Positions 3,593-46,410 of a stretch of DNA of 59,836 bases are shown piece after piece. The notes beneath the pieces were generated by a model. It had not been told where the DNA came from, did no database searches, and worked only from the letters and a program-made list of their open reading frames with translations. Position numbers and translations under genes: made by a program. This stretch comes from a virus (lineage: Duplodnaviria > Caudoviricetes), in the IMG/VR virus record IMGVR_UViG_3300026184_000061, positions 1 through 59,836 of that record. The stretch is one strand, 5' to 3'. Each line of letters begins with the position of its first letter. Position 1 is the first letter of the stretch.

Positions 3593-3605
3593 GGAGCAAG
3601 AGCCA

Positions 3606-4145: not shown

Positions 4146-4165
4146 TCACGAGGGAAGTATCTGAA

Positions 4166-5284: not shown

Positions 5285-5298
5285 AAGGAGTCGCTATC

Positions 5299-5718: not shown

Positions 5719-5776
5719 TCCATTCGGCGCTTTGTGCAGGGACGCACCTTGCGCCGACTTTTAAGAGGATACGAAC

Positions 5777-6231: not shown

Positions 6232-6235
6232 AGTC

Positions 6236-6526: not shown

Positions 6527-6527
6527 C

Positions 6528-6995: not shown

Positions 6996-7000
6996 TCGCG

Positions 7001-7552
7001 ATGGCTAAGAAAAACGCCGCCAAGAAAATCGCCAGCAAAGCTGGAAATCTAACGAAAGATCTGGCTCGGTTGACGAAGGATAATGTCTTGGTCGGCGTTC
7101 CTTCTAGCCACGATGCTCGTAATGGAGACAGCGGCATCAACAATGCAACGCTGGCTTATATCCACGACAATGGATCGCCCGCTCGCAATATTCCAGCGCG
7201 TCCGTTCATGAAGCCTGGAATCAATGCAGTGCAGAAGGAAATCACTAAGCTTCTGCGTGGCGGAGCTCTGGATGTTCTCAGCGGGCAGTCAGGCGCGGCG
7301 GAAAAGTGTCTTCATAAGGTAGGACTGACCGCTGTGTCTTCTATCAAAAATACGATCAACGACGGCATCGGTCCTCCGCTCAAATGGGGTACTGTGAAGG
7401 GAAGACTTCGCAATCGTATCGCGGCAAAGGGGGCAAAAGCAGCTCTGGAAAAAGGTGGCGATAAGCCGAGCATGGCTGATGCGAAACCTTTGGTGGCTAC
7501 AGGCCAGATGCGCAACTCCATCACCTACGTGATCAGGGACAAGAAAAAATGA
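7001..7552 (+). CDS. Neck / virion morphogenesis protein
   Basis: LAYIHDNGSPARNIPARPFMKPG and KPLVATGQMRNSITY. Confidence 0.8.
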   Translation: MAKKNAAKKIASKAGNLTKDLARLTKDNVLVGVPSSHDARNGDSGINNATLAYIHDNGSPARNIPARPFMKPGINAVQKEITKLLRGGALDVLSGQSGAAEKCLHKVGLTAVSSIKNTINDGIGPPLKWGTVKGRLRNRIAAKGAKAALEKGGDKPSMADAKPLVATGQMRNSITYVIRDKKK

Positions 7553-7995
7553 CTATTGACGTTACAGACATTCTGGTTGACGCAGAACTGACAGACACGT
7601 TCACTGTCATTCGTCGCAAGGAAACTGTAGATGTACACGGTCGCAGTTCGGTGGTGGAAACCAAGTATCCGAATACAATCGGCGTCGTGACTGCAGTCAG
7701 CCCCAATGATCTGGACCGTCAAGATGGTTATCAGGTCATGAATCGGTCAATCAGTATCGTTAGTAATTTCTTTCTGCAAGGTGAGGTAACGGGTTATCAA
7801 CCTGACCTTATCTTGTGGCGCGGTAACAAATATATCGTCAAGACTGTGGACCCCTATCCGCAGTTCGGAGAAGGCTTCATGCAGGCCGAAGCGATGAGCG
7901 AAGACCGGACTGATACAGCTTTCCCCAAAGCGCCGCCTTCTCAATTGGCGTTCAACGACGCCGCTAACTCAGGTTATATGGTGACACTATGCTGA
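7549..7995 (+). CDS. Head-tail joining (stopper) protein
   Basis: Position in the module; PDLILWRGNKYIVKTVDPYPQFGEGF. Confidence 0.7.
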   Translation: MTIDVTDILVDAELTDTFTVIRRKETVDVHGRSSVVETKYPNTIGVVTAVSPNDLDRQDGYQVMNRSISIVSNFFLQGEVTGYQPDLILWRGNKYIVKTVDPYPQFGEGFMQAEAMSEDRTDTAFPKAPPSQLAFNDAANSGYMVTLC

Positions 7996-8318
7996 TTCAA
8001 ATCTTAGATGCTGTCGGCAGCAACCAGACAGTCATCGTCAAGGCGCAAGAAGCTGTCGTCGACAAGTCAGCTTCGATTGTAGCGACTAACACGGCACAGG
8101 ATCTTGCAGCAGCGAACGTCAATCGCAACGGCTTTGTCATGCAGAACCTGGGGGCGAATGACATGTATGTCAGCGATGTAGGGCCGGCCGACGCCGGAGT
8201 CACGTCGTTCAAAGTTTCTCCCGGCGCATTCTGGCCTCCTGCAGACTATCCTGTCAGTACGGGTGCTATCAGCGTATACGGTACGGCGAACGATGTAGCC
8301 GTTGCGAGGGAATGGTAA
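7989..8318 (+). CDS. Hypothetical beta-sandwich virion protein
   Basis: RNGFVMQNLG motif; inserted in the neck module. Confidence 0.6.
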   Translation: MLIQILDAVGSNQTVIVKAQEAVVDKSASIVATNTAQDLAAANVNRNGFVMQNLGANDMYVSDVGPADAGVTSFKVSPGAFWPPADYPVSTGAISVYGTANDVAVAREW

Positions 8319-8324
8319 TTCGTC

Positions 8325-8912
8325 ATGGCGACTGACAGCTCTACCGGCGGCGCTCTTGTACCGGCTGCATCCCCCGCTCCGTTGGAAGGGGATGCCCTCG
8401 ACAATTTCATTCAGGAGTGGATCATTTCTCTTACGAATGTTGCCGGTCAGAACGCTCGTCCTCGATGGCAGGAAGACCCACCTAACATACCGCCCCACGG
8501 GACGGACTGGCTGGCCTTCGGTATCACTGACGTTGGTGCCGACTCTTTCGCGGCCGAGGTCCATGACGGTGCGGGCGGCGCTGGACTAGGGTCTACTCAG
8601 CTTCGCCGACATGAAGTGTTGGAGATCTACACAACATTCTATGGACCGAATGCTGTAGACAATGCTAAGCTTCTGAGGGATAGTGCGCAGATTGCGCAGA
8701 ACCATGAAATCTTGGATGTAAATGGGTTCGGCTTCGTAGATACAGGTGAACTCACGCGTGTACCGGAACTGATTAAGTCGAGATGGGTGCAGCGAGTAGA
8801 TATCACCATTCATCTTCGTCGTCAGGTGGTGCGTGAATATAGTGTGCTCAACATTGCTTCTGCCGACGGCACGGTGGACAATGAGCATTCGGTGGATCCT
8901 TTCAATACTTGA
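8325..8912 (+). CDS. Tail terminator / neck protein
   Basis: ARPRWQEDPP and FYGPNA motifs; directly upstream of the sheath gene. Confidence 0.7.
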   Translation: MATDSSTGGALVPAASPAPLEGDALDNFIQEWIISLTNVAGQNARPRWQEDPPNIPPHGTDWLAFGITDVGADSFAAEVHDGAGGAGLGSTQLRRHEVLEIYTTFYGPNAVDNAKLLRDSAQIAQNHEILDVNGFGFVDTGELTRVPELIKSRWVQRVDITIHLRRQVVREYSVLNIASADGTVDNEHSVDPFNT

Positions 8913-8924
8913 GGAATGTGACTC

Positions 8925-10415
8925 ATGCCTAATAAGCTCTCTATTAATCGCTTGGTCAAAGCGACGTTGAATCTTGCACCTACCGCCGCGCAGATGCAGA
9001 ACATCAACACGCTTTTGATCCTCGGTTCTACGGATGTCATCGATGTTCATGAACGCTATCGCGCGTATACCAGCATCGATGCAGTGGCGACGGATTTCGG
9101 TACAACTGCTCCGGAATATCTGGCTGCCGTTCTATGGTTCGAGCAGGCTCCTCAACCCTCCACGCTGCAGATCGGACGATGGGCTCAGACCGCGACTGCC
9201 GGTAAGTTGGCGTGTGCTCCGCTAACTACGACCGAACAGCTCATCGCAACGTGGCAGGCTATCACCAATGGCTCGTTCGATGTTGCCGTTGATGGCGCAG
9301 CCGCACAGAGCGTTTCAGCGCTGGATTTCAGCGGAGACACGACGCTCAATGGTGTGGCCAGCACCATCAACACTGCGTTGGCCGGGGCTGCGACTTGCGT
9401 ATGGAACTCGACCTATAGCCGATTCGAATTCACCAGCGCAACGACCGGAGCGACCTCGTCTATCAGCTTCTTGACGGCAGGTGGCGTAGGTACCGATATT
9501 TCTGGTATGCTCAAGGGTCTTTCGACGGACAGCGGTGCTTATGTCGCTGACGGCATCGCGGCTGAAACGCCTCTGGACGCCATTACGCTGTTCGACAATA
9601 ACTTCGGCCAGAACTGGTACGCAGCGATGTTCTGTGGGATTACGCAGGATTCAGATCATGTAGCCGTGGCCGGATACATCGAAGCGTCTGCGAACAAGCA
9701 TATCTACGGGGTCACTACGCAGGAAACAGGTGTGCTGATTAGTACGGATACGACTAACGTAGCTTACCAGCTTCAGCAGCTCAGCTATGATCGTTCAGTA
9801 GTGCAGTACTCCGGTTCCAACGCCTATGCCGTCGCTTCGCTTCTGGGTCGCGCGCTGACTGTGGACTATACGGCGAACAGTTCAGTCATCACGTTGATGT
9901 ACAAGCAAGAGCCGGGCATCGTAGCGGAGTATCTGACAGAAACCCAAGCCGAGGCGTTGGAAGGATTCAACTGCAACGTCTTCGCAGCATACAACAACGA
10001 TACGTCTATCGTTCAGCCGGGCAAAATGGTCTCTGGTGAATTCATCGACGTGATCACCGGAACCGATTGGCTGCTGTTGGATTTGCAGACAACTGTCTAC
10101 AATCTGCTGTATTCGAACACCACGAAAATTCCGCAGACTGACGCAGGCAACCATATCATCGCCACTGCTATGGAAGGTGTCCTCGCCCAGGCAGTCGATA
10201 ACGGCCTGCTGGCCCCCGGTGTGTGGGAGTCAGGCGGCTTCGGGGCTCTGAGTCAAGGCGATTTCTTGAAAAAGGGATTCTACATCTACGCTCCGCCTGT
10301 AGGCCAGCAGTCTGCTGCGAATCGTCAAGCCAGGAAGTCTGTTGCATTCCAAATCGCCGCCAAGTTGGCAGGTGCTATCCATACGATCGATTTTCAGGTC
10401 GACGTGAATCGTTAA
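8925..10415 (+). CDS. Tail sheath protein (DUF3383)
   Basis: 496 aa; APEYLAAVLWFEQAPQP, ITLMYKQEPG, KIPQTDAG and LAGAIH motifs. Confidence 0.9.
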   Translation: MPNKLSINRLVKATLNLAPTAAQMQNINTLLILGSTDVIDVHERYRAYTSIDAVATDFGTTAPEYLAAVLWFEQAPQPSTLQIGRWAQTATAGKLACAPLTTTEQLIATWQAITNGSFDVAVDGAAAQSVSALDFSGDTTLNGVASTINTALAGAATCVWNSTYSRFEFTSATTGATSSISFLTAGGVGTDISGMLKGLSTDSGAYVADGIAAETPLDAITLFDNNFGQNWYAAMFCGITQDSDHVAVAGYIEASANKHIYGVTTQETGVLISTDTTNVAYQLQQLSYDRSVVQYSGSNAYAVASLLGRALTVDYTANSSVITLMYKQEPGIVAEYLTETQAEALEGFNCNVFAAYNNDTSIVQPGKMVSGEFIDVITGTDWLLLDLQTTVYNLLYSNTTKIPQTDAGNHIIATAMEGVLAQAVDNGLLAPGVWESGGFGALSQGDFLKKGFYIYAPPVGQQSAANRQARKSVAFQIAAKLAGAIHTIDFQVDVNR

Positions 10416-10429
10416 TGAGGAGCTAATCA

Positions 10430-10876
10430 ATGGCTGCTACATATTCATTTCTCAACGTAAACGCGTCGTTGGTTGGTCCCGGCGGTGCGATCAATCTTGG
10501 AGCTGGTTCGGGCAGTTCCGAAGAAGGTATTACTATCGAACCGAACGAGGACATCGACACTCTCACGGTGGGTGCAGACGGCACGCCGATGCATTCACTA
10601 CACGCCGACCGTTCCGGCGAAGTGACTATTCGCGTACTGAAGACTTCGCCGGTCAATCAGAAGCTGGCGTTGATGTACGCTCTACAGACTGCTGACGCTT
10701 CTCAGCATGGTCGTAACGTACTGACCATTGCGAATGCCTATACGCAGGACTTCATTTCTTGCCAGCAGGTCGCGTTCAAGCGGGCTCCTTCGCTGACTTA
10801 TGCCAAAGAAGGCGGAATGAATGAGTGGACATTCAATGCGGGTATTATCGAACGTGCGCTGGGTAACGTAACATGA
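10430..10876 (+). CDS. Tail tube protein (DUF3277)
   Basis: TYSFLNV, EEGITIE, VGADG and LKTSPVN motifs; follows the sheath gene. Confidence 0.85.
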   Translation: MAATYSFLNVNASLVGPGGAINLGAGSGSSEEGITIEPNEDIDTLTVGADGTPMHSLHADRSGEVTIRVLKTSPVNQKLALMYALQTADASQHGRNVLTIANAYTQDFISCQQVAFKRAPSLTYAKEGGMNEWTFNAGIIERALGNVT

Positions 10877-24568: not shown

Positions 24569-25071
24569 GCTGAGGGCCCCCGCTGGTCTAGATCAGGGTC
24601 TATATACGAAAGCTCAGGTTCTTCGACCGGTTCGTGCAGTACCCGATATGCCACAATGTCCCAGTCGAGATCGTGATGTGCCCAATCCAACCATCGAGAA
24701 GGTCTGTTGGATTTTGATATTGTTCCGTCACGAAACTTGACCTCTACTACGGTGTCGTCCGGTACCGGGGCACGGGAGTCACCCGTCCATGGGGTCCAGT
24801 TCATCGCCCGTGCGACACCCGGAATTTCTTGCTCTCCCTTGGGTTTAGCCACATCTTCCTTCATCTTGGCTTCTTCTACCTCGATGTACTTGTCCAGGAA
24901 GTGCTTGGCTTTGTAAAGATCCTGCAGACCATTCTTGTCCTTCCACCGGCTGACGTACTTGGTGATCTGACCTTGGAAGTAATCAAGGTCATTAGCCGCC
25001 ACGAAGTCCCAATGCTGAATCTTCTGCTTCTTGTAGTGATCGCCGCCAACCTGAGTTTCGTTTGCACCCAT
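24565..25071 (-). CDS. DUF3310 protein (T7 gp1.7-like nucleotide kinase family)
   Basis: QVGGDHYK...FQGQITKYVSRWKDKNGLQDLYKAKHFL. Confidence 0.8.
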   Translation of the reverse strand: MGANETQVGGDHYKKQKIQHWDFVAANDLDYFQGQITKYVSRWKDKNGLQDLYKAKHFLDKYIEVEEAKMKEDVAKPKGEQEIPGVARAMNWTPWTGDSRAPVPDDTVVEVKFRDGTISKSNRPSRWLDWAHHDLDWDIVAYRVLHEPVEEPELSYIDPDLDQRGPSA

Positions 25072-25721
25072 CAGAAATATTCTCCCGGCAATTCGTGAGA
25101 AGGGGTCGACATTTCGACCAGAATCTCGTTTACGGTATAATTGATGTAGTGAAGCATTGCAATGGCCCTCGGAGAAAGCTCGCCCAACTTAGCGGTCATG
25201 GCTCCCAAGCAGTTATTGAACATAGGCCGTACGAACTGATTGCCTAGCATGAGCTGATCGCGACAGAAAAGCATCAGATCAAACGTGTCCGCCCACTTCA
25301 GGATTTGCTGCTCTTCTGGCGTCAAATCATCATAGACCTTGATGCCGTGCCTGTCTAAGAAGGCATCTTCCTCCGCATCAATAGCTTTGCGAATATCTTC
25401 AGACGCCCATTTGATAGTTGCAGGAGCATCTCCTGTATGTTGCTCAGCTATGTCGTGAAGCAGGCAGGCTCGAAGCAGATTGGCACTTGCCTTCCCCTCC
25501 GTCAGCCAAAGAGCCATGACTGCGACGCCGTGACTGTGTTCTGCATTGGTGTGAGTCCCAACGATGTGAGGGACAACATGAGCTCGGCGAACATTCCCAC
25601 CGAACCTGACAACATTGATCCATTCTGGCTTATCCAATTTTCTTTTCTCCTGGGGTTGTAGTCTACGATGAAGCGCGGAAGCCATTTCCAATGCCGCCGC
25701 CTGGGGGGTTTTGTCTGTCAT
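25071..25721 (-). CDS. HD-domain deoxynucleotide phosphohydrolase (YfbR/DatZ-like)
   Basis: R..H...NAEHS, LLHDIAEQHTGD and KWAD motifs. Confidence 0.85.
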   Translation of the reverse strand: MTDKTPQAAALEMASALHRRLQPQEKRKLDKPEWINVVRFGGNVRRAHVVPHIVGTHTNAEHSHGVAVMALWLTEGKASANLLRACLLHDIAEQHTGDAPATIKWASEDIRKAIDAEEDAFLDRHGIKVYDDLTPEEQQILKWADTFDLMLFCRDQLMLGNQFVRPMFNNCLGAMTAKLGELSPRAIAMLHYINYTVNEILVEMSTPSHELPGEYF

Positions 25722-26233: not shown

Positions 26234-26496
26234 GACGTTGTCCTCTTCGTTTTGGTTGATTTCTTGGCTCTCACTTTCTTGCTAACTGCTTCCAGCATTT
26301 CTTCCAGCTTCATACAGGTGGCGCAGTCGCAGTCCTTTGCGTGCACCATGCGCATTCCACGCAGATAGCTTTTTTGCCGTTCTACGATCATAGACGGCAA
26401 TTTCTTTTGAGCTACTTTGATAACGTCCTGCTTCTTACCTGAGATGTTTACCTCCCGTGACCTGGGTGTCGCGGTTGTACTGGCCTTTCGCGGCAT
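26152..26496 (-). CDS. Small basic protein (H..DCDCATC motif)
   Basis: AGGAGG RBS before ATG 26496; Lys/Ser/Arg tail overlaps the next gene. Confidence 0.55.
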   Translation of the reverse strand: MPRKASTTATPRSREVNISGKKQDVIKVAQKKLPSMIVERQKSYLRGMRMVHAKDCDCATCMKLEEMLEAVSKKVRAKKSTKTKRTTSCQPKKPGKKSSPKKGRSSKKSRSRSR

Positions 26497-26992
26497 AGGA
26501 CGCCTCCTGAGGAACAAGTTCATGTTCAAAGAACACCATCTGACCGATCTTCATGCCAAGCTCAATGATCAGATGATGGTGCGTGACGTTCTTGAATTCC
26601 ATGGTCAGCACCGAGCCATGCCACCCCGCATCGCACCACCCCGCCAGCATGTGCTGAAGACCGTTGCGGGCCAGCGTAGACTTCAGCTTATACTCAGCGC
26701 TGATGTATCGCGGCAGGTGGAAGACCTGCTCTGTCTGCGCCAAAATGAAGTCGCCCGGCGCTAAGATGTACTGACTTGCTTCTTCCGTCAGGACACAGGG
26801 TTTCAGCTTGATAGATTCCTTTGCGGCCAAGTTCACCATTCTCTCGTGGTATGCCTCAGGCTGTACTTCGGCTAGTATATGCTTACCTAGCGTTAAGTCA
26901 ATCGATGCCGAATTAACGTGTTCCGGCCTGGAATTTTCAATGACGCCTTCCTTGATGAGAAGAAGCAGTTGGTTATGGCTGAGTAACGACAT
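26435..26992 (-). CDS. dcd: dCTP deaminase
   Basis: NSASIDLTLG, LKSTLARNGL, AGWCDAGWHG.LTME, IGQMVF and YAAKGQY. Confidence 0.9.
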   Translation of the reverse strand: MSLLSHNQLLLLIKEGVIENSRPEHVNSASIDLTLGKHILAEVQPEAYHERMVNLAAKESIKLKPCVLTEEASQYILAPGDFILAQTEQVFHLPRYISAEYKLKSTLARNGLQHMLAGWCDAGWHGSVLTMEFKNVTHHHLIIELGMKIGQMVFFEHELVPQEASYAAKGQYNRDTQVTGGKHLR

Positions 26993-27225: not shown

Positions 27226-27450
27226 CTAATCCTTGACTCGGCCGCAAAGTTTATAGAGAAACTTGAATCCTATGTTCTCCGGATATTTATCCAGACCGCA
27301 CTTCTCGCAACACCACGCATCACCCATGCCCCCACCGCCGGTTTTGAATCGATGCCAACAGAACCCTTGATTATGCCCGAACCAGAAAATTACAGCGGAC
27401 ACCAACATTAGTGCCCACCACGCGAGCCAGTACATATACGGATTAGGCAT
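27226..27450 (-). CDS. Small membrane protein with CxxC
   Basis: N-terminal TM; overlap-coupled. Confidence 0.5.
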   Translation of the reverse strand: MPNPYMYWLAWWALMLVSAVIFWFGHNQGFCWHRFKTGGGGMGDAWCCEKCGLDKYPENIGFKFLYKLCGRVKD

Positions 27451-28462
27451 TCAGATTCTCCTTCGCTTTCAAGCGGCGTTCAAGCCACTGTACCATCGCT
27501 ATCGTCCAATCGACGTAGTGCGGCATGTGATGCTTTATGATTTCCAGTGCAGAACGAGTGTCGCCGCTCTTATGTCTGAACCACGCTTCGTGGGCGGGTA
27601 ATGCGACCACCCGGAAAAACGGTTCCTTGAAATGACTGGGATCCCAGATACCTGCTTCTGAGTCTATGAAGAACTGTTGTAGTTCGTCATCCCAGCATTT
27701 TGGATTCACTATCAGCGGTATAGGATTTGCACCGAGCTTTTCATATACACTCGTATCCGCGCTAGAAGGACGTATATCTTTCAAAGCGGCCCACAACGGA
27801 TTGTCTACGTAGACATGCAACGAATCTGAGATTTGCCGGTACTCCCCCACTTCCACGCCTACCATCGCTGCGATGTATTCTTGCAGCATGGAAAACTGGA
27901 CTATGTTGGCGCCGTAAGCACCCCAGATGAGATCATTGCTACGACAACAGACAGTCATGTGCAGTCTGCGCTCGCGGATCTTGAAGAAGATCATGTCATT
28001 GCAGGGTATGTCCTTACTTTCTACGTTTAGATCAAGAGTAGGTTTCCATATCGTCAGCACAGCCCGACGAGTGCTGTGTTCCCTGTGCAGCAAATCAATG
28101 ATTTCTTCTATCTGATCTATGTTGTGTGCGGAGCGTAGACGGTAGCCGTAGGGTGCATGGAAGATAAGGCCGTCGTCACTGTACGCCTTCATCTGCTGAT
28201 TGAACTGTGCCAGCCACTTGACATCAGCGCGACCACGCAAAATCCACAAAGATTCCATCAGGTGGAAAAAAGGGTTGGCGTTACGTGCGGCATTGAACAG
28301 AACGCGCTGCTTAGGAAGCTCGTACACCGTACACACCGGCTCACTGAATTCCAGCGTTTTCTGGCCATCTCTTGGGGCTATGGTTCGCGCCGTGTCTTCT
28401 TGCAGCATTTGGATGGCCTTTGGCAACGCTTCGTTGACATCATGCGCTCGGATTACAATCAC
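27443..28462 (-). CDS. dUMP hydroxymethylase (thymidylate synthase family)
   Basis: NPFFHLMESLW, YGYRLR, TRRAV, DIPCN and RSNDLIWGAYGAN..QFS. The Asn specificity residue and GxxGAN spacing match hmdU phages as I recall them. Confidence 0.85.
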   Translation of the reverse strand: MIVIRAHDVNEALPKAIQMLQEDTARTIAPRDGQKTLEFSEPVCTVYELPKQRVLFNAARNANPFFHLMESLWILRGRADVKWLAQFNQQMKAYSDDGLIFHAPYGYRLRSAHNIDQIEEIIDLLHREHSTRRAVLTIWKPTLDLNVESKDIPCNDMIFFKIRERRLHMTVCCRSNDLIWGAYGANIVQFSMLQEYIAAMVGVEVGEYRQISDSLHVYVDNPLWAALKDIRPSSADTSVYEKLGANPIPLIVNPKCWDDELQQFFIDSEAGIWDPSHFKEPFFRVVALPAHEAWFRHKSGDTRSALEIIKHHMPHYVDWTIAMVQWLERRLKAKENLNA

Positions 28463-29395
28463 CTAAATTCTCCTTTCTAATTGCTTATACAGCTTTTTCA
28501 CGCGCTTCTTCAATTGACTGCGAAAATCTTTTGCAAACCGTTCGTATTGAATCTCAGCGATGAGTTTGGATTTGGGCAGGAATTTTTCTACATCCTTAGG
28601 TCCCGCCACTATAAAATCCTTTACATCAAAGCCTGCTCGCATCAGCGTCGGCGCTGCTTCTTCGTCTATGAACTGAGCCACCTTGGCGGCCAAGCATTCA
28701 TAGAATCTGTTAGCGGGGGAGCAGTAGTAGCGATGGCTGTACTCATCCTCCATGTAGACAGTAGCGCGGTAATGTTGTAAATCTTGCAACAAGTTTCGCA
28801 TCGGACCGAGCGCGTTTATCTTTTTGTCCAGCCCCAAAAATTTTTTCTTGGCTTGCGCTGAAGAAGACGTGGTTACTTCGTACGACGTACTGGCTAGGTA
28901 TTTTTCCAAGTCCGCTTTGCGACCTTCCCGAAATGCTCCGTAGTAGAATAACCCCGGCTCTCGGTACCTATGCTGGACGAAGGTTTTGAATCGTTCAAAG
29001 GGCAGCGCATTCCAATTGACATAGGCGCTTTCCGGCGTACGAAGCTTGTGTTCCACAGTCCCCCACACGATAGGGGGCCGCAAGACTCCTCGGTCATCCA
29101 TCCAACCTTTCTTGCGCATTACCTTACCCACTTGCGATGGAGGCGCAATCGTGTAGTCGTTCTGGATGAATACGAAAGTCTTAGCTTTGCGTACCATCTC
29201 AGCCATTTCTTCACGCCAGTTGCAGAAGGCAGGCGGTCCGTTCACCATAAGAATGACGTCGTTCTTTTCGGCCTTGCCTGTACTCCTGTCCTTGATATCC
29301 AACCCCAAGGTTTCGGCCAGGAACTTAGCAATATTGATACTTGCCAACGTGCTGTTTCCATCTACCTTCGTGGGGTGAGTTATAATAGCCTTCAC
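28463..29395 (-). CDS. T4 DNA beta-glucosyltransferase-like GT-B glycosyltransferase
   Basis: YYGAFREGRK, NRFYECLAAKVAQFIDEE, ILMVNG and FIQND align by eye with T4 BGT YGGSFRSGQR, LRVWETMASDAVMLIDEE, LIVVNS and YLFTD (from memory). Confidence 0.8.
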   Translation of the reverse strand: MKAIITHPTKVDGNSTLASINIAKFLAETLGLDIKDRSTGKAEKNDVILMVNGPPAFCNWREEMAEMVRKAKTFVFIQNDYTIAPPSQVGKVMRKKGWMDDRGVLRPPIVWGTVEHKLRTPESAYVNWNALPFERFKTFVQHRYREPGLFYYGAFREGRKADLEKYLASTSYEVTTSSSAQAKKKFLGLDKKINALGPMRNLLQDLQHYRATVYMEDEYSHRYYCSPANRFYECLAAKVAQFIDEEAAPTLMRAGFDVKDFIVAGPKDVEKFLPKSKLIAEIQYERFAKDFRSQLKKRVKKLYKQLERRI

Positions 29396-29396
29396 G

Positions 29397-30179
29397 TTAT
29401 TCCTCCAGCTTCAATTGTCTGGTCAGCTTACGTAGATTCTTCGCCAGGGTGGAGTCTAGTTTGTCCGCTTCATACCACGTCATCGGCGTGGATTTACGAA
29501 ACCCCGTACCGCGATTGGCCGCAGGAAGTACCGGCATGTCTACCTTCTCCAGCCCGGCTTTGCGAAGCATCCCCAGCCACTTCTTTTCCATGTCTTTCAG
29601 ACGAATAGTTTCGTCACAATTATCGCGGCAGTTCTTCATCATTTCATAAGTGACTTGAAGACATCGCAGATCTTTCGGGCGTACATAGGGGTCGTCCAGC
29701 AACCCTACTTCTGACATCCATTCATAAGTGGTCAAAGGAAAAATTTTCGCCATACTGCGAGCCACTTCCAGCGGATGACGAACAAGGTTTACGATGTACT
29801 GTGCATCGAAGTCCCCTGCGCGTTCACCTACGTGAACTGTACGTTGGTCCTTCACCCACGAATGATACGGATACCAATGGTGATCGCACTGGAAATACAG
29901 AGAAACAGTGCCGTCCTTGCCGACGTATTCGTGCCCTATGTCGAATCCAGCCGCTTGCAACGTGCGGGCAAGCCACGTTGTTCCGCATCGGCCAGTACCT
30001 ATGACAGCCAGCGGAATACGGATAGAACCGCGAAGCTTGTCTACTCCCCATCGCTCCACCTTTGTACCGCTCTTGTTAGCTGCTTCCGTATTCTCGTAAC
30101 GCCATACTTTACGACCGCTATGATGGGGGGAGAGGATTTCCGGCTTTATTTGAACTCTTCTAAGGTCAGTCATGATCAC
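29397..30179 (-). CDS. PAPS-dependent sulfotransferase
   Basis: 5'-PSB loop VIGTGRCGTTWL, GHE, and 3'-PB motif LVRHPLEVARS. Confidence 0.8.
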   Translation of the reverse strand: MIMTDLRRVQIKPEILSPHHSGRKVWRYENTEAANKSGTKVERWGVDKLRGSIRIPLAVIGTGRCGTTWLARTLQAAGFDIGHEYVGKDGTVSLYFQCDHHWYPYHSWVKDQRTVHVGERAGDFDAQYIVNLVRHPLEVARSMAKIFPLTTYEWMSEVGLLDDPYVRPKDLRCLQVTYEMMKNCRDNCDETIRLKDMEKKWLGMLRKAGLEKVDMPVLPAANRGTGFRKSTPMTWYEADKLDSTLAKNLRKLTRQLKLEE

Positions 30180-31021
30180 TTCGCTCCTGGATACTTGCTT
30201 CGCGGACGACCTTCGTTATTCTTGGTACGCATGTACTTGTCGAACTCGCACAGGCAATTCTGCAGATTCTGCGCATCCAAGAAGGGCATCTTCTTTTCAG
30301 CGATGAAATCCTGAACCAGAGTGTGCAGTGCCATCAATCTATCACGCCACGCATCTTCTAACCAGGGACTCTCTGGAGGTAGCCCGATAACCCGATTCAA
30401 TCCGCGCCGACTGCCCGGTCCGCTTGCAGCCCAATACTTCCAGTCTTTAGCTTTCTTAAGGACACCGACATGCTTTGTGTCGGCGATGACCTGCGCCGCG
30501 ATGAAGCTGCCCATGCCGTCATACTGCATCAATCGTTCGTGGAAATCGTTTAGAGTATCTCCTTTCTGAGGGCGCAACCTATTCCTGTCTCGCCACAAAG
30601 GCGTCAAAACATGGGTGGCAAGATATTCTGCCTTGTCCATAGCATTCCCATTGGTAGATACGATGTACGCACCGCTGAAAACTTTTTCACGACGCTTCTT
30701 ACGATCGTGCATCACTTTGATAAACTTCTTCGGATTCCACGGTACGGGGTAGCCTATTTCTTCCAGCGTGTCAGGCCAATTGACCAGACGGGCCACGGCC
30801 ATTGCGAACCAGACGTCAGGATCCTTAGCATTCGGCTTCAGCCAATGTTTGTGAATCCACTGCGTAACTGTGTCGTCTTCACGGTAGACGTTACAGAAGC
30901 GATAAGACTGCAAGATCGTGTCTTGCGTCCAAGGTTTAGCACTTCCACAACGACGACGCAGTAGAATACTATACCGTTCTTCTATCCAGTACAGAAGCTT
31001 TTGAAACATGTCTTTCTTCAT
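30176..31021 (-). CDS. 5-hmdU DNA kinase family protein (aGPT-Pplase1)
   Basis: PWTQDTILQSYRFCNVYREDD, FSGAYIV, GMGSFIAAQVIAD, GPGSRRGL and QNCLCEFDKY. Confidence 0.88.
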   Translation of the reverse strand: MKKDMFQKLLYWIEERYSILLRRRCGSAKPWTQDTILQSYRFCNVYREDDTVTQWIHKHWLKPNAKDPDVWFAMAVARLVNWPDTLEEIGYPVPWNPKKFIKVMHDRKKRREKVFSGAYIVSTNGNAMDKAEYLATHVLTPLWRDRNRLRPQKGDTLNDFHERLMQYDGMGSFIAAQVIADTKHVGVLKKAKDWKYWAASGPGSRRGLNRVIGLPPESPWLEDAWRDRLMALHTLVQDFIAEKKMPFLDAQNLQNCLCEFDKYMRTKNNEGRPRSKYPGAK

Positions 31022-32052
31022 TTTTGTACCTTCACAAATGTTTGGTTGATGAGACGCCAGACAACGCTTTTAGCAATTCCACGAGACTTCGCTTCCATGA
31101 TCAGTTCTTCAACGGTGATTCCTTTCTTTTTCTTTGCTACAACACCGCACAAAGTTTCCAAAGGAGTGCCGGGCTTCGCCTCCTTTTCACCCGGCATCAT
31201 TACTATCTCATCTCCTGTCAGTACGCTCCAATCCACCTTTCCGAGTGGTGCAACCTGACCCATCTTCCGACCGGGCTTTGATTTGGCAGACACAAGCTTT
31301 TTCTTCTTTTCTTCAGCAGTGCGGCGCGGTTTCTTACCCTTGTTAGCGCGACGAGCTTGGGCGGCACGCTGCCTTTCTTCCTTGGCGGCTTCTCGTTTAG
31401 CCAGTCTGTCGGCCTTCTTTTTCTCTCGCTCAGCCTGCTTGGCTTCGCGACGCGCTTCCTTGCGTTCAGCACCCGAAAGATGGGTATACGATACCGTCGG
31501 ATTGGCCGTGCGCGGTTCCGTGTAGGTTTTATTTGGGTCTTCATTATTTCTAAACTCCAAATGAGGTTCTAGTTTAGCGTAGTCAGATATTCCGCAATGG
31601 CCAATGCGAATATCTTCCCACACTCCCAGCAGGGCAAACACAACATTCTTCGTTCTGTCGTACAGCACACTGAGCAGTTCGTCTTCCTTTGCTTTCACAC
31701 CTAAGTCTTCTAGAAGTGCGACATGTTGGCTGGGAATCAACCCCCCGATACGAGCTTTTAATTGATTTACCCAATTCCAATCTCCGGCCGGATCTGTACG
31801 GTCGTAAAGAGGAACCGACATGTGCTGTCGTAAAACGTACACTGCTTCTTCAACGCTACGAACGTCGGCCTCTGCTGCCGGGTTTTTTCTTGCCAGCGAC
31901 TTTTTTCTTGCTGGAGACTTTTTTCTTACCGGCGACTTTTTTCTTACCGGCGACTTTTTTCTTACCGGTGACTTTTTTGCGGCCGCCCTTTTTCTGGACG
32001 ACTGCACTTTCGCTTTCGTCTTCTGTGAACTTACTTGTTTTCGCGCGGCCAT
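31018..32052 (-). CDS. Basic protein with histone H1-like KKSPVR repeats
   Basis: GAGG RBS before ATG 32052; first gene of the modification block; about 200-nt overlap with the helicase 3' end. Confidence 0.7.
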   Translation of the reverse strand: MAARKQVSSQKTKAKVQSSRKRAAAKKSPVRKKSPVRKKSPVRKKSPARKKSLARKNPAAEADVRSVEEAVYVLRQHMSVPLYDRTDPAGDWNWVNQLKARIGGLIPSQHVALLEDLGVKAKEDELLSVLYDRTKNVVFALLGVWEDIRIGHCGISDYAKLEPHLEFRNNEDPNKTYTEPRTANPTVSYTHLSGAERKEARREAKQAEREKKKADRLAKREAAKEERQRAAQARRANKGKKPRRTAEEKKKKLVSAKSKPGRKMGQVAPLGKVDWSVLTGDEIVMMPGEKEAKPGTPLETLCGVVAKKKKGITVEELIMEAKSRGIAKSVVWRLINQTFVKVQK

Positions 32053-33595
32053 TAGGGGCACCTCTTCTAAACGAAATATTGTACCTCTGTTCCATTGCTT
32101 CTAGGAACGCTTTTTGTTGATCATCTTTTGCTTCACGCACCTTGATAACAACTTCATCAATAGTGCCTAGCGCCGTAGGGTGGTGGACACGAATCCTGGG
32201 AACTTTGACGCCTTGACGCCATACCCTCTGCAAGAACTGTTCATAATCTTCTAGGTTATAAGTTTCCGTAAAGATATAGATGTTCGAGCAGGTCCCCTCT
32301 TGCAGATTGAGCCCATGCGCGATGGAAGCTGGATTACCTGCTAAGTAGGGGAGTTCTCCGCGATTCCATTGGTCGCAGATCTTATCTGCTTCCTTATCGC
32401 TAACCCCACCACCGATGTACGGCATGTCTGGAAATATCTTGCGGATACGTTCAATTTCATGCGTATATTCGTAAGCGATAAGTAAAGGCTCACCTTGAAG
32501 TTCTTCAATGATTTCTTCCAGATCCGCCAACTTTTCTTCGTGGATTTCTAGCACCTTATGATGCTTGTCGTAAATAGCACCGCCTGTGAACTGACGTAAC
32601 TTACCTGTAGCGACAGCCGCGTTACTGGCTACGATAACCCCTTTTTCCACCTCCAAAATAAACTCTTCTTCTAGCTCCTTGTACTTTTTCATCGTTTCCT
32701 CGGAGAACTCCAAGGCTCGCGGTACATGCACAAGGGGAGGCAGATCCAACTCTTCGTTACCATAGCGAACTACGATGTCGCCAATAGCATCGTAAATCTG
32801 TTCCTCTGCGCCAGGCAAAATTTTGAAGTCATAGCCCATATACCCTGATGGGTAGAAGTAGCGGTTGCGGTACTGCGTGATGTACGCACCTAGTCTCTGA
32901 CCGCCGTCCATCATGTAGACCTGCCCAAAAATGTCCATTAGATTCTTAGGCACCGGCGAGCCCGTTAGAAGATTGATATACTTCACTGGATGCTTTTTAT
33001 CATGCACCATCTTACGGAGCATTTTGAATCGCTTAGTCTTTGTGTTTTTAATTTTACTGGATTCGTCAAACACAATCATGTCGAAGAATTCGCCCATAGC
33101 TATGCGATGCTTCTTCAACGTGCGTTGCAGCCATTCCAACCCTTCGTAGTTAATTAAGAAGACGTCGGCATTAGATTCTAGCAAACGACCTTCTTTGTGG
33201 GGTCCGTGCAGGATAGTCGTGACCCACGGCAGCATCCATTTATCAGCTTCCTTGGGCCATACGTTATATACGATACGTCGCTTCGCTACGACCAGCATGC
33301 GACGGACATGCCCGAGCTTACGGCGTAATCCGTAGATGCTGTAAGTAATCATGGTCTTTCCAAGACCAGGAGCTAAGAAAAAAGCTGCGGACGGCCGCGA
33401 AACGCCGAACCGAATAGCTTCTTCCTGATACTTGTGCGGTACGAATCGCTGAGCCTTTTTAGGAGTGTGTTCGCCTTCCAAGACTCGGTCACTGCGTTTT
33501 ACGTGCGCTGCTTTTTTCTTTGCGACGCGCTTTTTTCTTGAAGCGTTCGTAGATTTCGAGCGCTTCTTCGTAGGTGTCGACCGTCCAAACGCCAT
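31856..33595 (-). CDS. SNF2-family helicase
   Basis: PHKYQ, APGLGKT, INYEGL, FDESS, LTGSP, HGLNLQ and QRVWRQG. Confidence 0.92.
   Translation of the reverse strand: MAFGRSTPTKKRSKSTNASRKKRVAKKKAAHVKRSDRVLEGEHTPKKAQRFVPHKYQEEAIRFGVSRPSAAFFLAPGLGKTMITYSIYGLRRKLGHVRRMLVVAKRRIVYNVWPKEADKWMLPWVTTILHGPHKEGRLLESNADVFLINYEGLEWLQRTLKKHRIAMGEFFDMIVFDESSKIKNTKTKRFKMLRKMVHDKKHPVKYINLLTGSPVPKNLMDIFGQVYMMDGGQRLGAYITQYRNRYFYPSGYMGYDFKILPGAEEQIYDAIGDIVVRYGNEELDLPPLVHVPRALEFSEETMKKYKELEEEFILEVEKGVIVASNAAVATGKLRQFTGGAIYDKHHKVLEIHEEKLADLEEIIEELQGEPLLIAYEYTHEIERIRKIFPDMPYIGGGVSDKEADKICDQWNRGELPYLAGNPASIAHGLNLQEGTCSNIYIFTETYNLEDYEQFLQRVWRQGVKVPRIRVHHPTALGTIDEVVIKVREAKDDQQKAFLEAMEQRYNISFRRGAPNGRAKTSKFTEDESESAVVQKKGGRKKVTGKKKVAGKKKVAGKKKVSSKKKVAGKKKPGSRGRRS
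31880..31978. repeat. 18-bp tandem repeat (about 5.5 copies) read in two frames
   Basis: GACTTTTTTCTTACCGGC units; encode KKSPVR in one gene and KKKVAG in the overlapping helicase. Confidence 0.85.
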
Positions 33596-43523: not shown

Positions 43524-43718
43524 TCAGTGGCTTGCAGCGTTGACCAACGCTCGCGGGGTTCCGCAGATAAAGCGGGTTTGCTGGTATACGAAAATGTGAC
43601 TGTCAGCTACGCACTGACGCGCGATGTTACGTTGCGCATTGTCCCAGCCCCATGAATACAGTACATAGGCCAGGACAATGGCGAGTATTAGGTAGAAAAT
43701 AGACTTCACGGCTTCCAA
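43524..43718 (-). CDS. Small membrane protein
   Basis: N-terminal TM and two Cys. Confidence 0.55.
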   Translation of the reverse strand: MEAVKSIFYLILAIVLAYVLYSWGWDNAQRNIARQCVADSHIFVYQQTRFICGTPRALVNAASH

Positions 43719-44269
43719 CCCCCCTTTCGCAAGTCCGCCAAGATGTCTTCCTTTTTAGCAGTGGTCTTGTCTGCAGGCGCGTGAAGATTATCCAGATACC
43801 GAGCAAATTCCGGCATCTTCTTTCGGACTTCGTCCACGGTGGAGCACTCTCTTAACAGGTTACGCACTTTGGTGCGAATAGCGTATCGACGTGACTGCTG
43901 TTCTCTATACTTCACACCCATCAACTTGACCTGAGCCTCTACCGCTTTAGGGGGTACGAAAGACATCTTCGCTCCCTCGCTCGCAAACCCTCTTTCTCTC
44001 ACTTCGTCTTCCGTATCTTTTGGATAAATCTTCACTCCTGTGAGAAAAACATCGCCGAGGAATGTGTGGGTGTTATACCGCACTACCTGCAGATAGCCGC
44101 GAAGCTCGGGGTCGTCGTACAACTTAGCCACTTCCTTCGGCATCTGTGTTCTCGCCGAGCTTTGCAACAGTTCCGTCGCTTCGGCACGGTAATCAGTTTC
44201 AGGCAAGTCGTCCAAGACCGCCTTCAGTATCAATGAACGTAGCTTTTCATTCAGCTTACCTTTTAACAT
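43706..44269 (-). CDS. Nmad5-like (nucleotide-modification-associated domain 5) protein
   Basis: KLNEKLRSLILKAVLDDLP.TDY, TVDEVRKKMPEFARYL and ADLRKGGW. Confidence 0.65.
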   Translation of the reverse strand: MLKGKLNEKLRSLILKAVLDDLPETDYRAEATELLQSSARTQMPKEVAKLYDDPELRGYLQVVRYNTHTFLGDVFLTGVKIYPKDTEDEVRERGFASEGAKMSFVPPKAVEAQVKLMGVKYREQQSRRYAIRTKVRNLLRECSTVDEVRKKMPEFARYLDNLHAPADKTTAKKEDILADLRKGGWKP

Positions 44270-44280
44270 TGTTCGTTCTC

Positions 44281-45153
44281 CTATATTTGTGGAGTATGGG
44301 TGTGGCCAGCTTCCTCGTCCAACTGTGTGGCGCAGTTACTGATGACTCTCAGCGCATCTTCCTTGCTGAAGGTGTCGCCCGGTATGTGTAAAATGTGTCC
44401 CGCGTCGCGAACAATGCGCGGGACATGGTTGGCCAACGGATAGCCGAAATGATAGTGGATATCTTCCGGCTGCGAAGCGAGGGACCTGAACACGAAGCCA
44501 CGAAAAGCGGCTGTACTGGTCATCACGGCAACATACTCAAGGTCCATCATATCGTCGAAGTCCTTGATGAGATAGGAAATCACGACTCTTCTACCAAATC
44601 TTGGTATCAAGTCATGCACCGGAGTGACCGCCCAAAGCTGCACGTTTCGCCCGCTAGAAATCAGCATGTCTACCAAAGCAGCCGCTGCGAATCCTCTCCA
44701 GCGAGCCTGCTCAGCCGGTACGTAGCCGCTAGCAACCAAGTTCACTAGAATGACAGCGTTATTACTGCCATGCTGATTATGCGCTTCTCGCTCCGTGGTC
44801 TGCCACGCACGGTCCAGGTTGCCGCTGTACACCCGTTGTATGTCCAGGAAATCTCCTGCATTAGAAAACTGCCTGCGGCGACGGGCTGAACGAATTTGCG
44901 CGAACTGTGGCGTAGCTTCGGCCAGTTCGTTACGAATGATTTCCGCACCTTCCGGCCAACCTACCTTCACCTTGTTCAGAAGCTCTGCAAATCCTCCTTG
45001 CCACCCCCACCAACTCGTCTGGAGATTATCTGCTTCTCGCTGCCAGCGCCTTTTATTGGCGTAGGTTGCGCCGTCTAGGTTTTCCTTCATCAAGTCTTCG
45101 ATAGAATCGTAGGAGATTTCCCGCGCGTCGCTATACTCTTCTACACGTTTCAT
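44281..45153 (-). CDS. VWA-like partner of the MoxR/CobS ATPase
   Basis: GDFLDIQRVYSG, ILVNLVASG and FRGFVF; directly downstream of the AAA gene. Confidence 0.65.
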   Translation of the reverse strand: MKRVEEYSDAREISYDSIEDLMKENLDGATYANKRRWQREADNLQTSWWGWQGGFAELLNKVKVGWPEGAEIIRNELAEATPQFAQIRSARRRRQFSNAGDFLDIQRVYSGNLDRAWQTTEREAHNQHGSNNAVILVNLVASGYVPAEQARWRGFAAAALVDMLISSGRNVQLWAVTPVHDLIPRFGRRVVISYLIKDFDDMMDLEYVAVMTSTAAFRGFVFRSLASQPEDIHYHFGYPLANHVPRIVRDAGHILHIPGDTFSKEDALRVISNCATQLDEEAGHTHTPQI

Positions 45154-45165
45154 AGCAGCGTTCTC

Positions 45166-46410
45166 CTATAAAAGTTCGTCGTGGTCTACCTTAGACCGCT
45201 CGTTATCAGACCAATCTGCGAAGTAAACCTCGCGCACCTTTTCCAATTCCCACACACCCGCTTCAAGGGCTTTTGTAGCGTCGATGAGAAACCGGGTAGA
45301 CATCACCCGGCGAAGCTTGTGAGAACGAATGGCGCTACGGATACTAAGCCCCCACTTCAGCACGTCAGGATGAACCAGGGTCTGCTCCACCTTGGGGCTA
45401 TAATCCATGTGAATGACGCCGGACCGGAAGCGGTCCAAGGTGGCCGCGTCCAACTGATTGCGACCCACGAACATCATATCTGCTCCGTTGCCGTAGGTGT
45501 TACCAGCCGCGATGAGAACGAAGTCCTTATGCTTCGTCACCTTCGGCTTCTTGTACCGCTGCGGAATGAAGAAGTGGTCGTTGGCGATGGCCTGATTGAT
45601 ATACACCATCGTGTTCGGGTCCGCTGCATCCACTTCATCCAGCAGAAACACGCCGCCGTTCTCGTACATATCCACGAAAGACGACTGCACGTATTCAAAG
45701 CGACCGCTGGCTCCGGTGGGCAGCAACCATCCAATAAGCATGGATTCGCTCATGCCTGCGGAGCAGGAAATGGAAGCAAATCGACGCTTCATGGCGACCG
45801 CTACCTGCTCGCTGATAAAAGTCTTACCACACCCGGACGGACCCACGAGCATCAGGTTATAGCCCAATGACGCGCGTTGCAGGATGTCTTCGAATTCTTC
45901 AGGCATCGTGTGCTTCATACGAACGCCCGTCTTTGCCTTGGGCTGAACGATATTCAGCTTGCGGTAAGTCTTAGACGCTTCGGCCAGCGCCTGTTCCGCT
46001 TCCTTTTTCAGAAGTGTGCTGACCTTGGTAACGGCGTTCTGTATCGCAGATTCCACTTCAGACTTGGCGTCGCTACCAACCACTTCTTCGTGAACGATTT
46101 TACGAAGCAATTCTTCGTCCACTTCGGCGACCGGCTGGTCCGGTTTGTCGCTGTCCAATTGCAGCAGCTTATAACTGCGCACTTTGTCATATACTTCGCG
46201 GAACTTGTTCGGGTCTTGTTCTTGGATACGAAGGAGCATATCAACCTTCGCCTGCTTCTTAGCGGGGTGCCTGCGCACCTGCACGCCCAGACTTTCCAGC
46301 ATCAGGCGAAGCTTATACTGCACCAGACGACCAAGGTCAAATTCACAGACTCCGTCCCGAGCAGCTTCATTGACCTTATCTTCTTGCGTTTTGAAATCAC
46401 CGAATTTCAT
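45166..46410 (-). CDS. MoxR/CobS-like AAA+ ATPase
   Basis: GPSGCGKT, LLDEVD, AAGNT.G.GAD and GRNQLDAATLDRF. Confidence 0.9.
   Translation of the reverse strand: MKFGDFKTQEDKVNEAARDGVCEFDLGRLVQYKLRLMLESLGVQVRRHPAKKQAKVDMLLRIQEQDPNKFREVYDKVRSYKLLQLDSDKPDQPVAEVDEELLRKIVHEEVVGSDAKSEVESAIQNAVTKVSTLLKKEAEQALAEASKTYRKLNIVQPKAKTGVRMKHTMPEEFEDILQRASLGYNLMLVGPSGCGKTFISEQVAVAMKRRFASISCSAGMSESMLIGWLLPTGASGRFEYVQSSFVDMYENGGVFLLDEVDAADPNTMVYINQAIANDHFFIPQRYKKPKVTKHKDFVLIAAGNTYGNGADMMFVGRNQLDAATLDRFRSGVIHMDYSPKVEQTLVHPDVLKWGLSIRSAIRSHKLRRVMSTRFLIDATKALEAGVWELEKVREVYFADWSDNERSKVDHDELL

Follow-up and report, generated by a model that had tools for sequence, protein, structure and literature searches.

A BGT-fold glycosyltransferase encoded with a candidate dUMP hydroxymethylase and a sulfotransferase-like protein points to glycosylated, possibly sulfated, hydroxymethyluracil in phage DNA

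Hypermodified pyrimidines known so far from phage DNA include the glycosylated 5-hydroxymethylcytosine (hmC) of the T-even phages and the amino-acid-derived modifications of 5-hydroxymethyluracil (hmU) in M6, ViI and PhiW-14. Phages of the M6/YuA group carry hmU-derived bases, and their thymidine hypermodification is described as the joint work of a dUMP hydroxymethylase, the kinase 5-HMUDK, an amino-acid:DNA transferase (ADDT), and pyridoxal phosphate (PLP) and radical S-adenosylmethionine (radical-SAM) enzymes (PMC8989533). Outside phages the nearest counterpart is base J of kinetoplastids, an O-glycosylated hmU in DNA made by JBP1/2 and JGT. Here we analyze IMG/VR record IMGVR_UViG_3300026184_000061 (Duplodnaviria; Caudoviricetes) over its full length, a complete virus genome that is 59,836 bp long, has direct terminal repeats and is rated 100% complete by CheckV (hereafter the window). 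In it, four near-gapless genes on the minus strand, from 31021 to 27443, encode in order an HMUDK_hel protein, a sulfotransferase-like protein, a glycosyltransferase (GT) and a thymidylate synthase (TS) homolog. On balance, the evidence inclines us toward a pre-replicative hmU pathway in which the DNA is O-glycosylated by an enzyme with the fold of T4 β-glucosyltransferase (BGT) and, in the window phage, is probably sulfated as well. The phage is remote from cultured relatives: no cultured phage has a family A DNA polymerase more than 42% identical to its own, the nearest by this measure being phages of Stenotrophomonas and Pseudoxanthomonas.

By analogy, the window system would work as T4 hmC glucosylation does, with a hydroxymethylase acting before a BGT-fold transferase. 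The T4 gene b-gt adjoins gene 42, and the window GT likewise adjoins a TS-family hydroxymethylase candidate; T4 BGT, which we take to be CAZy family GT63, and the window GT have in common a two-Rossmann GT-B fold and aligned catalytic Asp and Arg/Glu motifs. The two nevertheless differ considerably, since they are 13-16% identical, cannot be linked by phmmer, profile or Pfam, and differ in length by about 40 residues, the window enzyme being the shorter. Moreover, the neighboring hydroxymethylase is of the dCMP type in T4 and of the uracil type in the window, where the GT is additionally coupled to a sulfotransferase-like gene.

The precursor arm, to judge by sequence similarity, belongs to the M6-type hmU pathway. 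M6 and the window phage both have genomes of about 60 kb and share the TS and HMUDK_hel components (43-45% identity to the M6/YuA TS homologs and 34% to M6 gp55); gp59, downstream of the M6 TS gene, is a putative HD-superfamily hydrolase, and an HD gene likewise follows TS in the window. Unlike M6, the window has the sulfotransferase-like gene and the GT between HMUDK_hel and TS, and it lacks the rest of the M6 enzyme set: the P-loop 5-hydroxymethyldeoxyuridine (5-hmdU) DNA kinase (PF18748) and ADDT (PF18724) are absent at E<=0.1 from the complete genome, and no radical-SAM or PLP gene occurs among the window open reading frames (ORFs) scanned. As the kinase and ADDT are missing and a sulfotransferase-like protein and a GT are present, the decoration would not be an amino-acid-derived group but a sugar, sulfated or not.

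The comparison with base J concerns the product more than the route. The predicted product belongs to the same class, O-glycosylated hmU in DNA, but hmU in the window would be made before replication by the TS homolog, and the Tet_JBP family (PF12851) has no match in the complete genome. JGT is grouped with GT-A enzymes (Pyle et al. preprint, 10.1101/2023.12.21.572611), whereas our model of the window GT is GT-B. In sister loci of the GT family, L038 and others, a Tet/JBP-family hydroxylase is followed by the GT, as with JBP in base J. Replacement by hmU in the window phage would probably be genome-wide, not confined to specific loci as base J is, and the pathway probably adds a sulfation step that base J lacks. 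A preliminary description of this DNA, made from the letters alone, had proposed a base J-like nucleotide made by an independent phage route. The independent route is borne out by the ties of the GT family to hmU-forming enzymes, the absence of Tet/JBP and the GT-B fold as against the GT-A fold of JGT; the end product, however, is probably not plain base J, given the sulfotransferase-like gene, HMUDK_hel and an adenylylsulfate (APS) kinase that had been overlooked.

Glycosyl-hmU in phages has already been anticipated in print, as a metagenomic association and not as a demonstrated product. GT-B enzymes resembling T4 BGT ('subclass III') are reported from metaviromes beside ThyS (~28%) or 5mYOX (~10%), and many 5mYOXs are suggested to make 5hmU (Pyle et al. 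preprint, 10.1101/2023.12.21.572611); GTs are also reported in 31% of 5mYOX/T-dioxygenase neighborhoods (PMC13229309). The enzymes tested in these two sources act on 5hmC, and the passages and main text searched mention no glycosyl-hmU product, sulfotransferase or APS kinase. A literature search returned no paper demonstrating phage glycosyl-hmU, and none tying a sulfotransferase or APS kinase to phage DNA modification, supplementary co-occurrence tables, which may already list such neighbors, lying outside its scope.

The GT (28463-29395, minus strand; 310 aa) is assigned as a T4 BGT-like GT-B DNA glycosyltransferase from its fold and conserved residues. Its ORF and that of the TS homolog lie exactly where the preliminary description had placed them, and the three motifs singled out there as BGT-like are present, FIQND at residues 76-80, YYGAFREGR at 151-159 and NRFYE...IDEE at 229-246. 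Sequence searches alone give no link to any known enzyme: no Pfam family passes (AtTam9 appears below threshold) and no PHROG matches, phmmer and a 62-sequence profile run against all PDB sequences recover neither BGT nor another glycosyltransferase at E<=10, and the 68 homologs in metagenomes are all unnamed. That the enzyme is BGT-like was settled by the fold match. An AlphaFold (AF2) model built from 62 homologs has a predicted local distance difference test (pLDDT) score of 96.5 and a predicted template-modeling score of 0.92; its six best Foldseek matches are all T4 BGT entries (top E 1.8e-9), and a Foldseek-independent VIA search of 48,161 chains places T4 BGT first (Z 21.0, root-mean-square deviation [rmsd] 3.0 over 279 aa, 16% identity), followed by T4 AGT at Z 17.2 and generic GT-B enzymes at Z <=16.5. 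This structural comparison bears out the earlier claim of T4 BGT homology, and the modeled match lies far beyond what chance would give; we accordingly regard the GT, on its predicted structure, as an enzyme that has the BGT fold but forms a sequence family of its own.

Aligned by hhalign, the GT family profile and T4 BGT match weakly (E 0.015, probability 3%) but stay collinear over 261 columns, and the three motifs fall where expected. In this alignment FIQND lies over LFTD of BGT, pairing D80 with D100; YYGAFREGR lies over YGGSFRSGQR, pairing R156 with R191; and NRFYE...FIDEE lies over LRVWE...LIDEE, pairing R230 with R269 and E233 with E272. D217 pairs with BGT D258, and BGT R195 pairs with K160, the invariant R159 being one position off. 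Each of D80, R156, R230 and E233 is either invariant across the 62 family members or conserved in 90% or more of them, and N79 and D80 both reach at least 90%. We take Arg191, Arg195, Arg269 and Glu272 of BGT to be ligands of the UDP phosphates and ribose. Asp100 is named as the BGT catalytic residue and general base in a figure legend of the Pyle et al. preprint (10.1101/2023.12.21.572611). T4 BGT glucosylates 5hmU in DNA in vitro (PMC4111573), which makes glycosyl-hmU chemistry plausible for an enzyme of this fold.

The TS homolog (27443-28462, minus strand; 339 aa) matches Pfam Thymidylat_synt (4.1e-21) and phrog_5131 (1e-110), and its similarity to the M6/YuA-group enzymes extends over its full length, the M6 enzyme being 43% identical. 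Its residues D151, C154, R174, D177 and N186 occupy ThyA positions L143 (here Asp), C146, R166, D169 and N177, with C154 and R174 in the columns of the catalytic Cys146 and Arg166. At the ThyA N177 position Asn is associated with uracil and Asp with cytosine specificity, the L143 position is acidic in hydroxymethylases and bulky and hydrophobic in methyl-forming synthases, and D169N marks 5-hydroxy-dCMP synthases (PMC13326640). The preliminary description had read Asn at the specificity site, and the alignments to PDB entries agree: N186, the Asn of 'GAN', aligns with the 'PFN' Asn of ThyA (3ix6) and, in MilA, a CMP hydroxymethylase (5b6d), with an Asp. D151 places an acidic and not a bulky hydrophobic residue in the L143 column, and D177 keeps Asp169, so the protein is not of the D169N type. 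With this uracil-type hydroxymethylase signature, a correlate and not proof of specificity, the TS homolog is expected to be a dUMP hydroxymethylase, and we treat it as a candidate for that role.

A scan of IMG/VR with the GT profile suggests that hmU DNA is the acceptor on which the wider family acts. It yielded 80 loci with up to 10 kb of flanking sequence, many on short contigs (numbered L0xx where they must be told apart); partner genes were called in them from all stop-to-stop ORFs by blastp (E<=1e-5). A TS homolog occurs in 36 of the 80 and HMUDK_hel also in 36, with both in 32, and the commonest arrangement is adjacent HMUDK_hel, GT and TS. A Tet/JBP dioxygenase occurs in 17 loci (21 at E<=1e-4), 13 of these 17 also having ParB. 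No locus among the 80 combines TS with Tet/JBP, and none combines HMUDK_hel with Tet/JBP. The GT thus accompanies TS or Tet/JBP and never both, following two independent routes to hmU DNA, and the recurrence of one enzyme beside two mechanistically unrelated ways of making hydroxymethyluracil is the strongest argument for hmU DNA as its acceptor. ParB-associated phage 5mYOX enzymes, termed T-dioxygenases, are reported to oxidize T to 5hmU (PMC13229309), and by analogy the ParB-bearing Tet/JBP loci would match these ParB-dependent enzymes. Minimal modules exist: L016 has HMUDK_hel, GT and TS and, within about 7 kb, no kinase, sulfotransferase or ADDT/transferase-like gene. The M6-type kinase is found in 4 of the 80 loci and ADDT in none. 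Context labels cluster on a maximum-likelihood tree of 63 distinct GTs (nine of the 80 loci were dropped for having fewer than 220 residues aligned, and nine identical rows were merged), requiring 18 changes against a shuffled mean of 30.9, a value as low being reached in 0 of 200 shuffles.

The specificity column of the GT-linked TS partners is predominantly Asn. The 36 TS ORFs gave 32 Asn, 5 Asp and 1 truncated at N177, a tally (30+1+1 Asn, 5 Asp, 1 truncated) that sums to 38 with one fragment counted twice and with three references alongside. The Asp-type, dCMP partners lie in L017, L057, L066, L075 and L077, and to go by this signature some members of the GT family probably serve hmC. L066, L075 and L077 also carry HMUDK_hel, which is therefore not tied to uracil.

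Several other contexts of the GT family merit description in their own right. The only cultured phages with a detectable GT homolog include the coliphages IME392 and EP_H11 (25% identity), in which the order is GT, HMUDK_hel, P-loop protein, uracil-type TS and HD, with a PIG-L-family protein nearby. In IME392 (L141; MH719082) the stretch 1078-10616 consists mostly of genes annotated as hypothetical and runs methyltransferase, unknown, transporter-like, PIG-L-family (Pfam: GlcNAc-PI de-N-acetylase), unknown, GT homolog, HMUDK_hel, AAA_28 P-loop protein, uracil-type TS and HD nucleotidase. Systems related to these two phages may, by analogy, build larger structures such as the linkers of SP-15 and YerA41. 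In L020 (9069-14145) the genes run ParB, GT, a TET-associated glycosyltransferase (TAGT) and two of the radical-SAM/SPASM kind, and in L007 (6186-13037) they run HMUDK_hel, 5'-3' exonuclease, B12-radical-SAM, GT, SPASM radical-SAM and a 5-hmdU DNA kinase-methyltransferase fusion; from their gene content both look like further thymidine hypermodifications.

The gene directly upstream of the GT (29397-30173, minus strand) encodes a 258-aa protein that, from its motifs and modeled fold, looks like a sulfotransferase dependent on 3'-phosphoadenosine 5'-phosphosulfate (PAPS). We take the sulfotransferase motifs to be a 5'-phosphosulfate loop of the K/R-x-G-T-T type and a 3'-phosphate motif R-x7-S. 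The window protein has the loop GTGRCGTTW (GCGRSGTKY in L038), which contains no Walker-A Lys, an invariant Glu 20 residues past the loop Arg, and a VRHPLxxxxS motif. In 14 sequences the family motif is GxGR(C/S)GT, with G59, G61, R62, G64, E82, R132 and P134 invariant and S140 conserved in at least 90%. Its match to Pfam Sulfotransfer_3 scores 21.7 bits, under the cut-off of 27, and is confined to the P-loop stretch. The AF2 model (pLDDT 88) retrieves sulfotransferases as all of its top ten VIA matches (Z 10.0 to 7.9; best 4gox, rmsd 4.0 over 172 aa), the best other rows, P-loop kinases where named by the depositor, reaching Z <=7.8 over about 115 aa; Foldseek likewise retrieves sulfotransferases almost exclusively, though with weak scores (best E 1.9e-3), and sulfotransferase clusters are among the named neighbors in a protein-language-model Atlas. 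Profile and phmmer searches of PDB sequences gave a chance ribosomal match only, and tblastn against 50,697 phage records gave zero matches, as did megablast of the whole operon against the same records.

About 20 kb from the operon, the genome encodes an APS kinase (49918-50532, minus strand; 204 aa) that matches PF01583 at 4.8e-59 over positions 1-151 of 152 (9.2e-61 in a second scan; full-length), an enzyme rare in phages (5 of the 50,697 records at E<=1e-8) that, as identified by this match, would supply PAPS. Searches of the phage's own genome found no ATP sulfurylase, PAPS reductase/CysD, NTP_transferase or epimerase; APS and the sugar donor must therefore come from the host. Likewise, since the complete genome has no kinase, ADDT or Tet_JBP, the GT and the sulfotransferase-like protein are the only recognizable decorating enzymes in it.

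The distribution of the sulfotransferase-like gene connects it with the GT. Homologs occur in five of the 80 GT loci, the near-identical L038-L041 and L053, and lie directly upstream of the GT in all five. The complete 68-kb genome of L053 is related to that of the window phage, and the gene order is the same in both. The L038 group is a phage unrelated to it, in which ParB, Tet_JBP, the sulfotransferase homolog, GT, APS kinase, a small nucleotidyltransferase-like gene and terminase follow one another; apart from a weak terminase match, it has nothing in common with the window but the sulfotransferase, GT and APS kinase, and no C5-cytosine methyltransferase is found in the L038 record. The sulfotransferase-bearing GTs of the window, L053 and the L038 group fall in three separate places in the GT tree, and the APS kinase is absent from three GT-bearing records that lack the sulfotransferase. 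A further 56 loci (39 on viral contigs, 17 on metagenome contigs) have distant, partial sulfotransferase-like genes, 24-61% identical over short segments, and at E<=1e-5 no homolog of GT, TS, Tet/JBP or APS kinase. The longest contigs of three sulfotransferase homologs and of three GT homologs agree in length (4484, 2522 and 53601), a hint, though no proof, that the two genes share contigs there. Since the GT is the constant element and the sulfotransferase accompanies it in so few loci, the latter fits best as an add-on to the GT; as an occasional add-on that is also found where HMUDK_hel is missing, it is most simply read as sulfating the sugar that the GT installs.

Directly after the APS kinase in L038 (11536-11985) lies a gene for a 149-aa cytidylyltransferase-like protein (HIGH-type nucleotidyltransferase), which recurs in L039-L041 and L062 and has no homolog in the window. 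This protein might make APS or another activated donor.

In the pathway that we propose, the dCTP deaminase-like protein and the HD nucleotidase would feed dUMP to the TS-family dUMP hydroxymethylase, and hmdUTP would then take the place of dTTP in replication, steps suggested by the signatures of the enzymes. The BGT-like GT, as its fold, conserved residues and gene context suggest, would flip 5-hmdU out of duplex DNA, with Asp80, the equivalent of BGT Asp100, acting as general base for transfer of a sugar from a host nucleoside-diphosphate sugar (NDP-sugar) to the 5-hydroxymethyl oxygen. The product would be an O-glycosyl-hmU resembling base J, in β linkage if the enzyme is inverting as BGT is. 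The sulfotransferase-like enzyme would then O-sulfate the added sugar, drawing on PAPS boosted by the phage APS kinase, as its motifs, fold and co-occurrence with these genes suggest. HMUDK_hel would belong to the pre-replicative, TS-dependent route.

Several observations weigh against this pathway as a whole or against one of its steps. We infer the acceptor, the donor sugar and the anomer alike. The alignment of the GT with BGT is weak at the level of sequence (hhalign E 0.015), the window GT has a long branch in the tree and falls within no well-supported clade, and the five Asp-type TS partners suggest that its family is not strictly specific for hmU. The sulfotransferase assignment draws moderate scores (Z 10, Foldseek E ~2e-3, Pfam below cut-off), and the complete L053 genome has the sulfotransferase but no APS kinase. 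The sulfotransferase gene adjoins HMUDK_hel, where M6 has its kinase, and the structures that its product matches best, sulfotransferase domains of CurM and of an olefin synthase, are presumably activating enzymes that create a leaving group, a type that would fit direct sulfation of hmU instead. A different difficulty comes from IME392, which is placed in the DNA-polymerase group of SP-15 and YerA41, phages whose sugars sit on an alkyl linker and not directly on hmU (PMC12686479).

The points concerning the sulfotransferase can be assembled into an account in which the enzyme modifies 5-hmdU in DNA directly, in the role that the 5-hmdU DNA kinase has elsewhere, and yields 5-sulfooxymethyl-dU, either as the final product or to serve as an activated leaving group; HMUDK_hel, through its invariant Cys-Glu, would then substitute the sulfate group, and the GT would glycosylate remaining hmU or the new group. 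Such an account makes sense of a sulfotransferase gene placed immediately downstream of HMUDK_hel in a genome without a PF18748 kinase, much as the P-loop kinase gp54 of M6 lies next to gp55, as well as of the CurM/olefin-synthase matches, domains of a kind that sulfates a hydroxyl to make a leaving group. The invariant Cys, Glu and Lys of HMUDK_hel also recall the Cys and Glu of the clade-2 transferases (PMC8989533). We nevertheless consider it unlikely, because L038-L041 have the sulfotransferase, GT and APS kinase yet no HMUDK_hel, because the sulfotransferase never occurs without an adjacent GT among the loci of the GT scan (five of five), and because none of the partners turns up in the 56 loci whose sulfotransferase-like genes are distant. 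In addition, a benzylic-type sulfate ester on the C5-methylene would be labile in virion DNA. We attach little credence to a further possibility, that the sugar is carried on a longer side chain built on hmU (alkyl linker, phosphate and sugars, in the style of SP-15, YerA41 and Carin-5) and that the GT is a late decorating enzyme: the listing of the cultured GT-homolog phage IME392 with the YerA41/SP-15 polymerase group (PMC12686479) and the PIG-L-family protein, methyltransferase and P-loop protein of its cluster speak for a linker, but the ORFs scanned in the window include no radical-SAM gene, the genome lacks any kinase, ADDT or NDP-sugar gene with which to build a linker, minimal HMUDK_hel-GT-TS modules exist, and the Tet/JBP loci put the GT directly after the hydroxylase. 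Finally, the GT could act on hmC or not on phage DNA at all, the TS homolog being ordinary or of the dCMP type and the GT and sulfotransferase being directed at the host envelope, a protein or a small molecule. GT-B enzymes do have many acceptors, dozens of them matching the model at VIA Z 12-17, and 27 of the 80 GT loci, many of them short or ending near the GT, have neither TS nor Tet/JBP in the available flanks. This seems very improbable to us, as the best fold match is by a clear margin a DNA glycosyltransferase, with T4 AGT next, the TS signature is unlike ThyA at L143 and has Asn at N177, the operon is tightly packed among genes of nucleotide metabolism, and 53 of the 80 loci repeat the association with TS or Tet/JBP.

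Should O-glycosylation of hmU by the BGT-fold enzyme be confirmed, a base J-like nucleotide would have arisen in viruses through that fold and in combination with two ways of making hmU. More tentatively, and somewhat short of an even chance in our estimation, the window phage and at least two unrelated lineages may make a sulfated DNA base by means of a PAPS-dependent sulfotransferase, fed by an APS kinase, that acts on glycosyl-hmU or hmU, the glycosyl-hmU core being an analog of base J reached through TS or Tet/JBP. If true, this would be the first sulfate-bearing nucleobase modification of DNA, and thus a new class of DNA modification. A bulky, strongly anionic group in the major groove would bear on how phages evade restriction, CRISPR and DNA-glycosylase defenses, and also on DNA packaging and on tools for enzymatic labeling of 5hmU. 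The module is small, a GT with or without the sulfotransferase, and the cultured phages IME392 and EP_H11 provide an experimental entry point.

The first gene of the operon, HMUDK_hel (30176-31021, minus strand; 281 aa), is a full-length match to Pfam PF18723 (6.8e-45) and a homolog of M6 gp55 (E 7e-53), and it has no similarity to the M6 ADDT, gp51. An older name for gp55, aGPT-Pplase1, is given in the SN1 genome note (PMC9476957), and M6 gp55 was dispensable for the reaction in vitro (PMC8989533). In an alignment of 29 sequences C258, E259 and K262 (LCEFDKY) are invariant, a Cys-Glu-x-x-Lys arrangement reminiscent of the clade-2 transferases, which have a catalytic Cys and Glu (PMC8989533). 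The Cys of 'RFCNVYRE' was considered as the catalytic motif and dropped, as it is not conserved (consensus Thr) and the conserved pair is C258-E259. When HMUDK_hel and the sulfotransferase-like protein were modeled as a complex, the prediction scored 0.01 against a mark of 0.32, which is evidence neither way.

The four-gene operon is translationally coupled. At each junction the stop codon lies within 0-2 nt of the next start, and Shine-Dalgarno-like sequences lie inside each upstream gene. The HMUDK_hel stop codon is 2 nt ahead of the sulfotransferase-like ATG at 30173, the start used here (the automatic ORF listing puts a GTG at 30179); the GT starts with a GTG, preceded by GGAGGA, 1 nt past the TAA stop of the sulfotransferase-like gene; and the GTG of the TS homolog directly abuts the TAG stop of the GT. 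Downstream of the operon lie genes for a DUF3310 protein and, on the minus strand, for the dCTP deaminase-like protein and the HD nucleotidase. The former, already recognized in the preliminary description, is found at 26435-26992 (185 aa; Pfam DCD 4.8e-31, phrog_1663 8e-44). The latter is a YfbR-like HD-domain protein (25071-25721; 216 aa; Pfam YfbR-like 3.7e-10, HD 2.2e-7) that likely shapes the nucleotide pool and has a homolog downstream of the TS gene in 10 of the 80 GT loci.

Three further features lie outside the operon. At 31883-31978 an 18-nt tandem repeat of 5.3 copies falls within the minus-strand ORFs 31018-32061 and 31856-33595, which overlap by about 200 nt. It encodes Lys-rich repeats of the KKSPVR type in a 347-aa protein without a Pfam family and, in another frame, the K-rich C-terminal tail of an SNF2-family helicase; we take the KKSPVR-type repeats to resemble SPKK-like DNA-binding motifs. 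At 43706-46410 (minus strand) a 187-aa protein with a weak match to Nmad5 ('nucleotide modification associated domain 5'; 1.1e-5, under the cut-off) adjoins a DUF7192 protein and an AAA_5 (MoxR-like) ATPase. An Nmad5 gene is listed in the thymidine-modification cassette of M6-like phages (PMC9476957), and the trio could belong to the modification system; among the 80 GT loci none of the three has a homolog except the AAA_5 protein, in L045. At 51405-52016 (minus strand), between the APS kinase region and a primase-like gene, lies a gene for a protein with an Rv2179c-like 3'-5' exoribonuclease domain (Pfam 1.3e-50).

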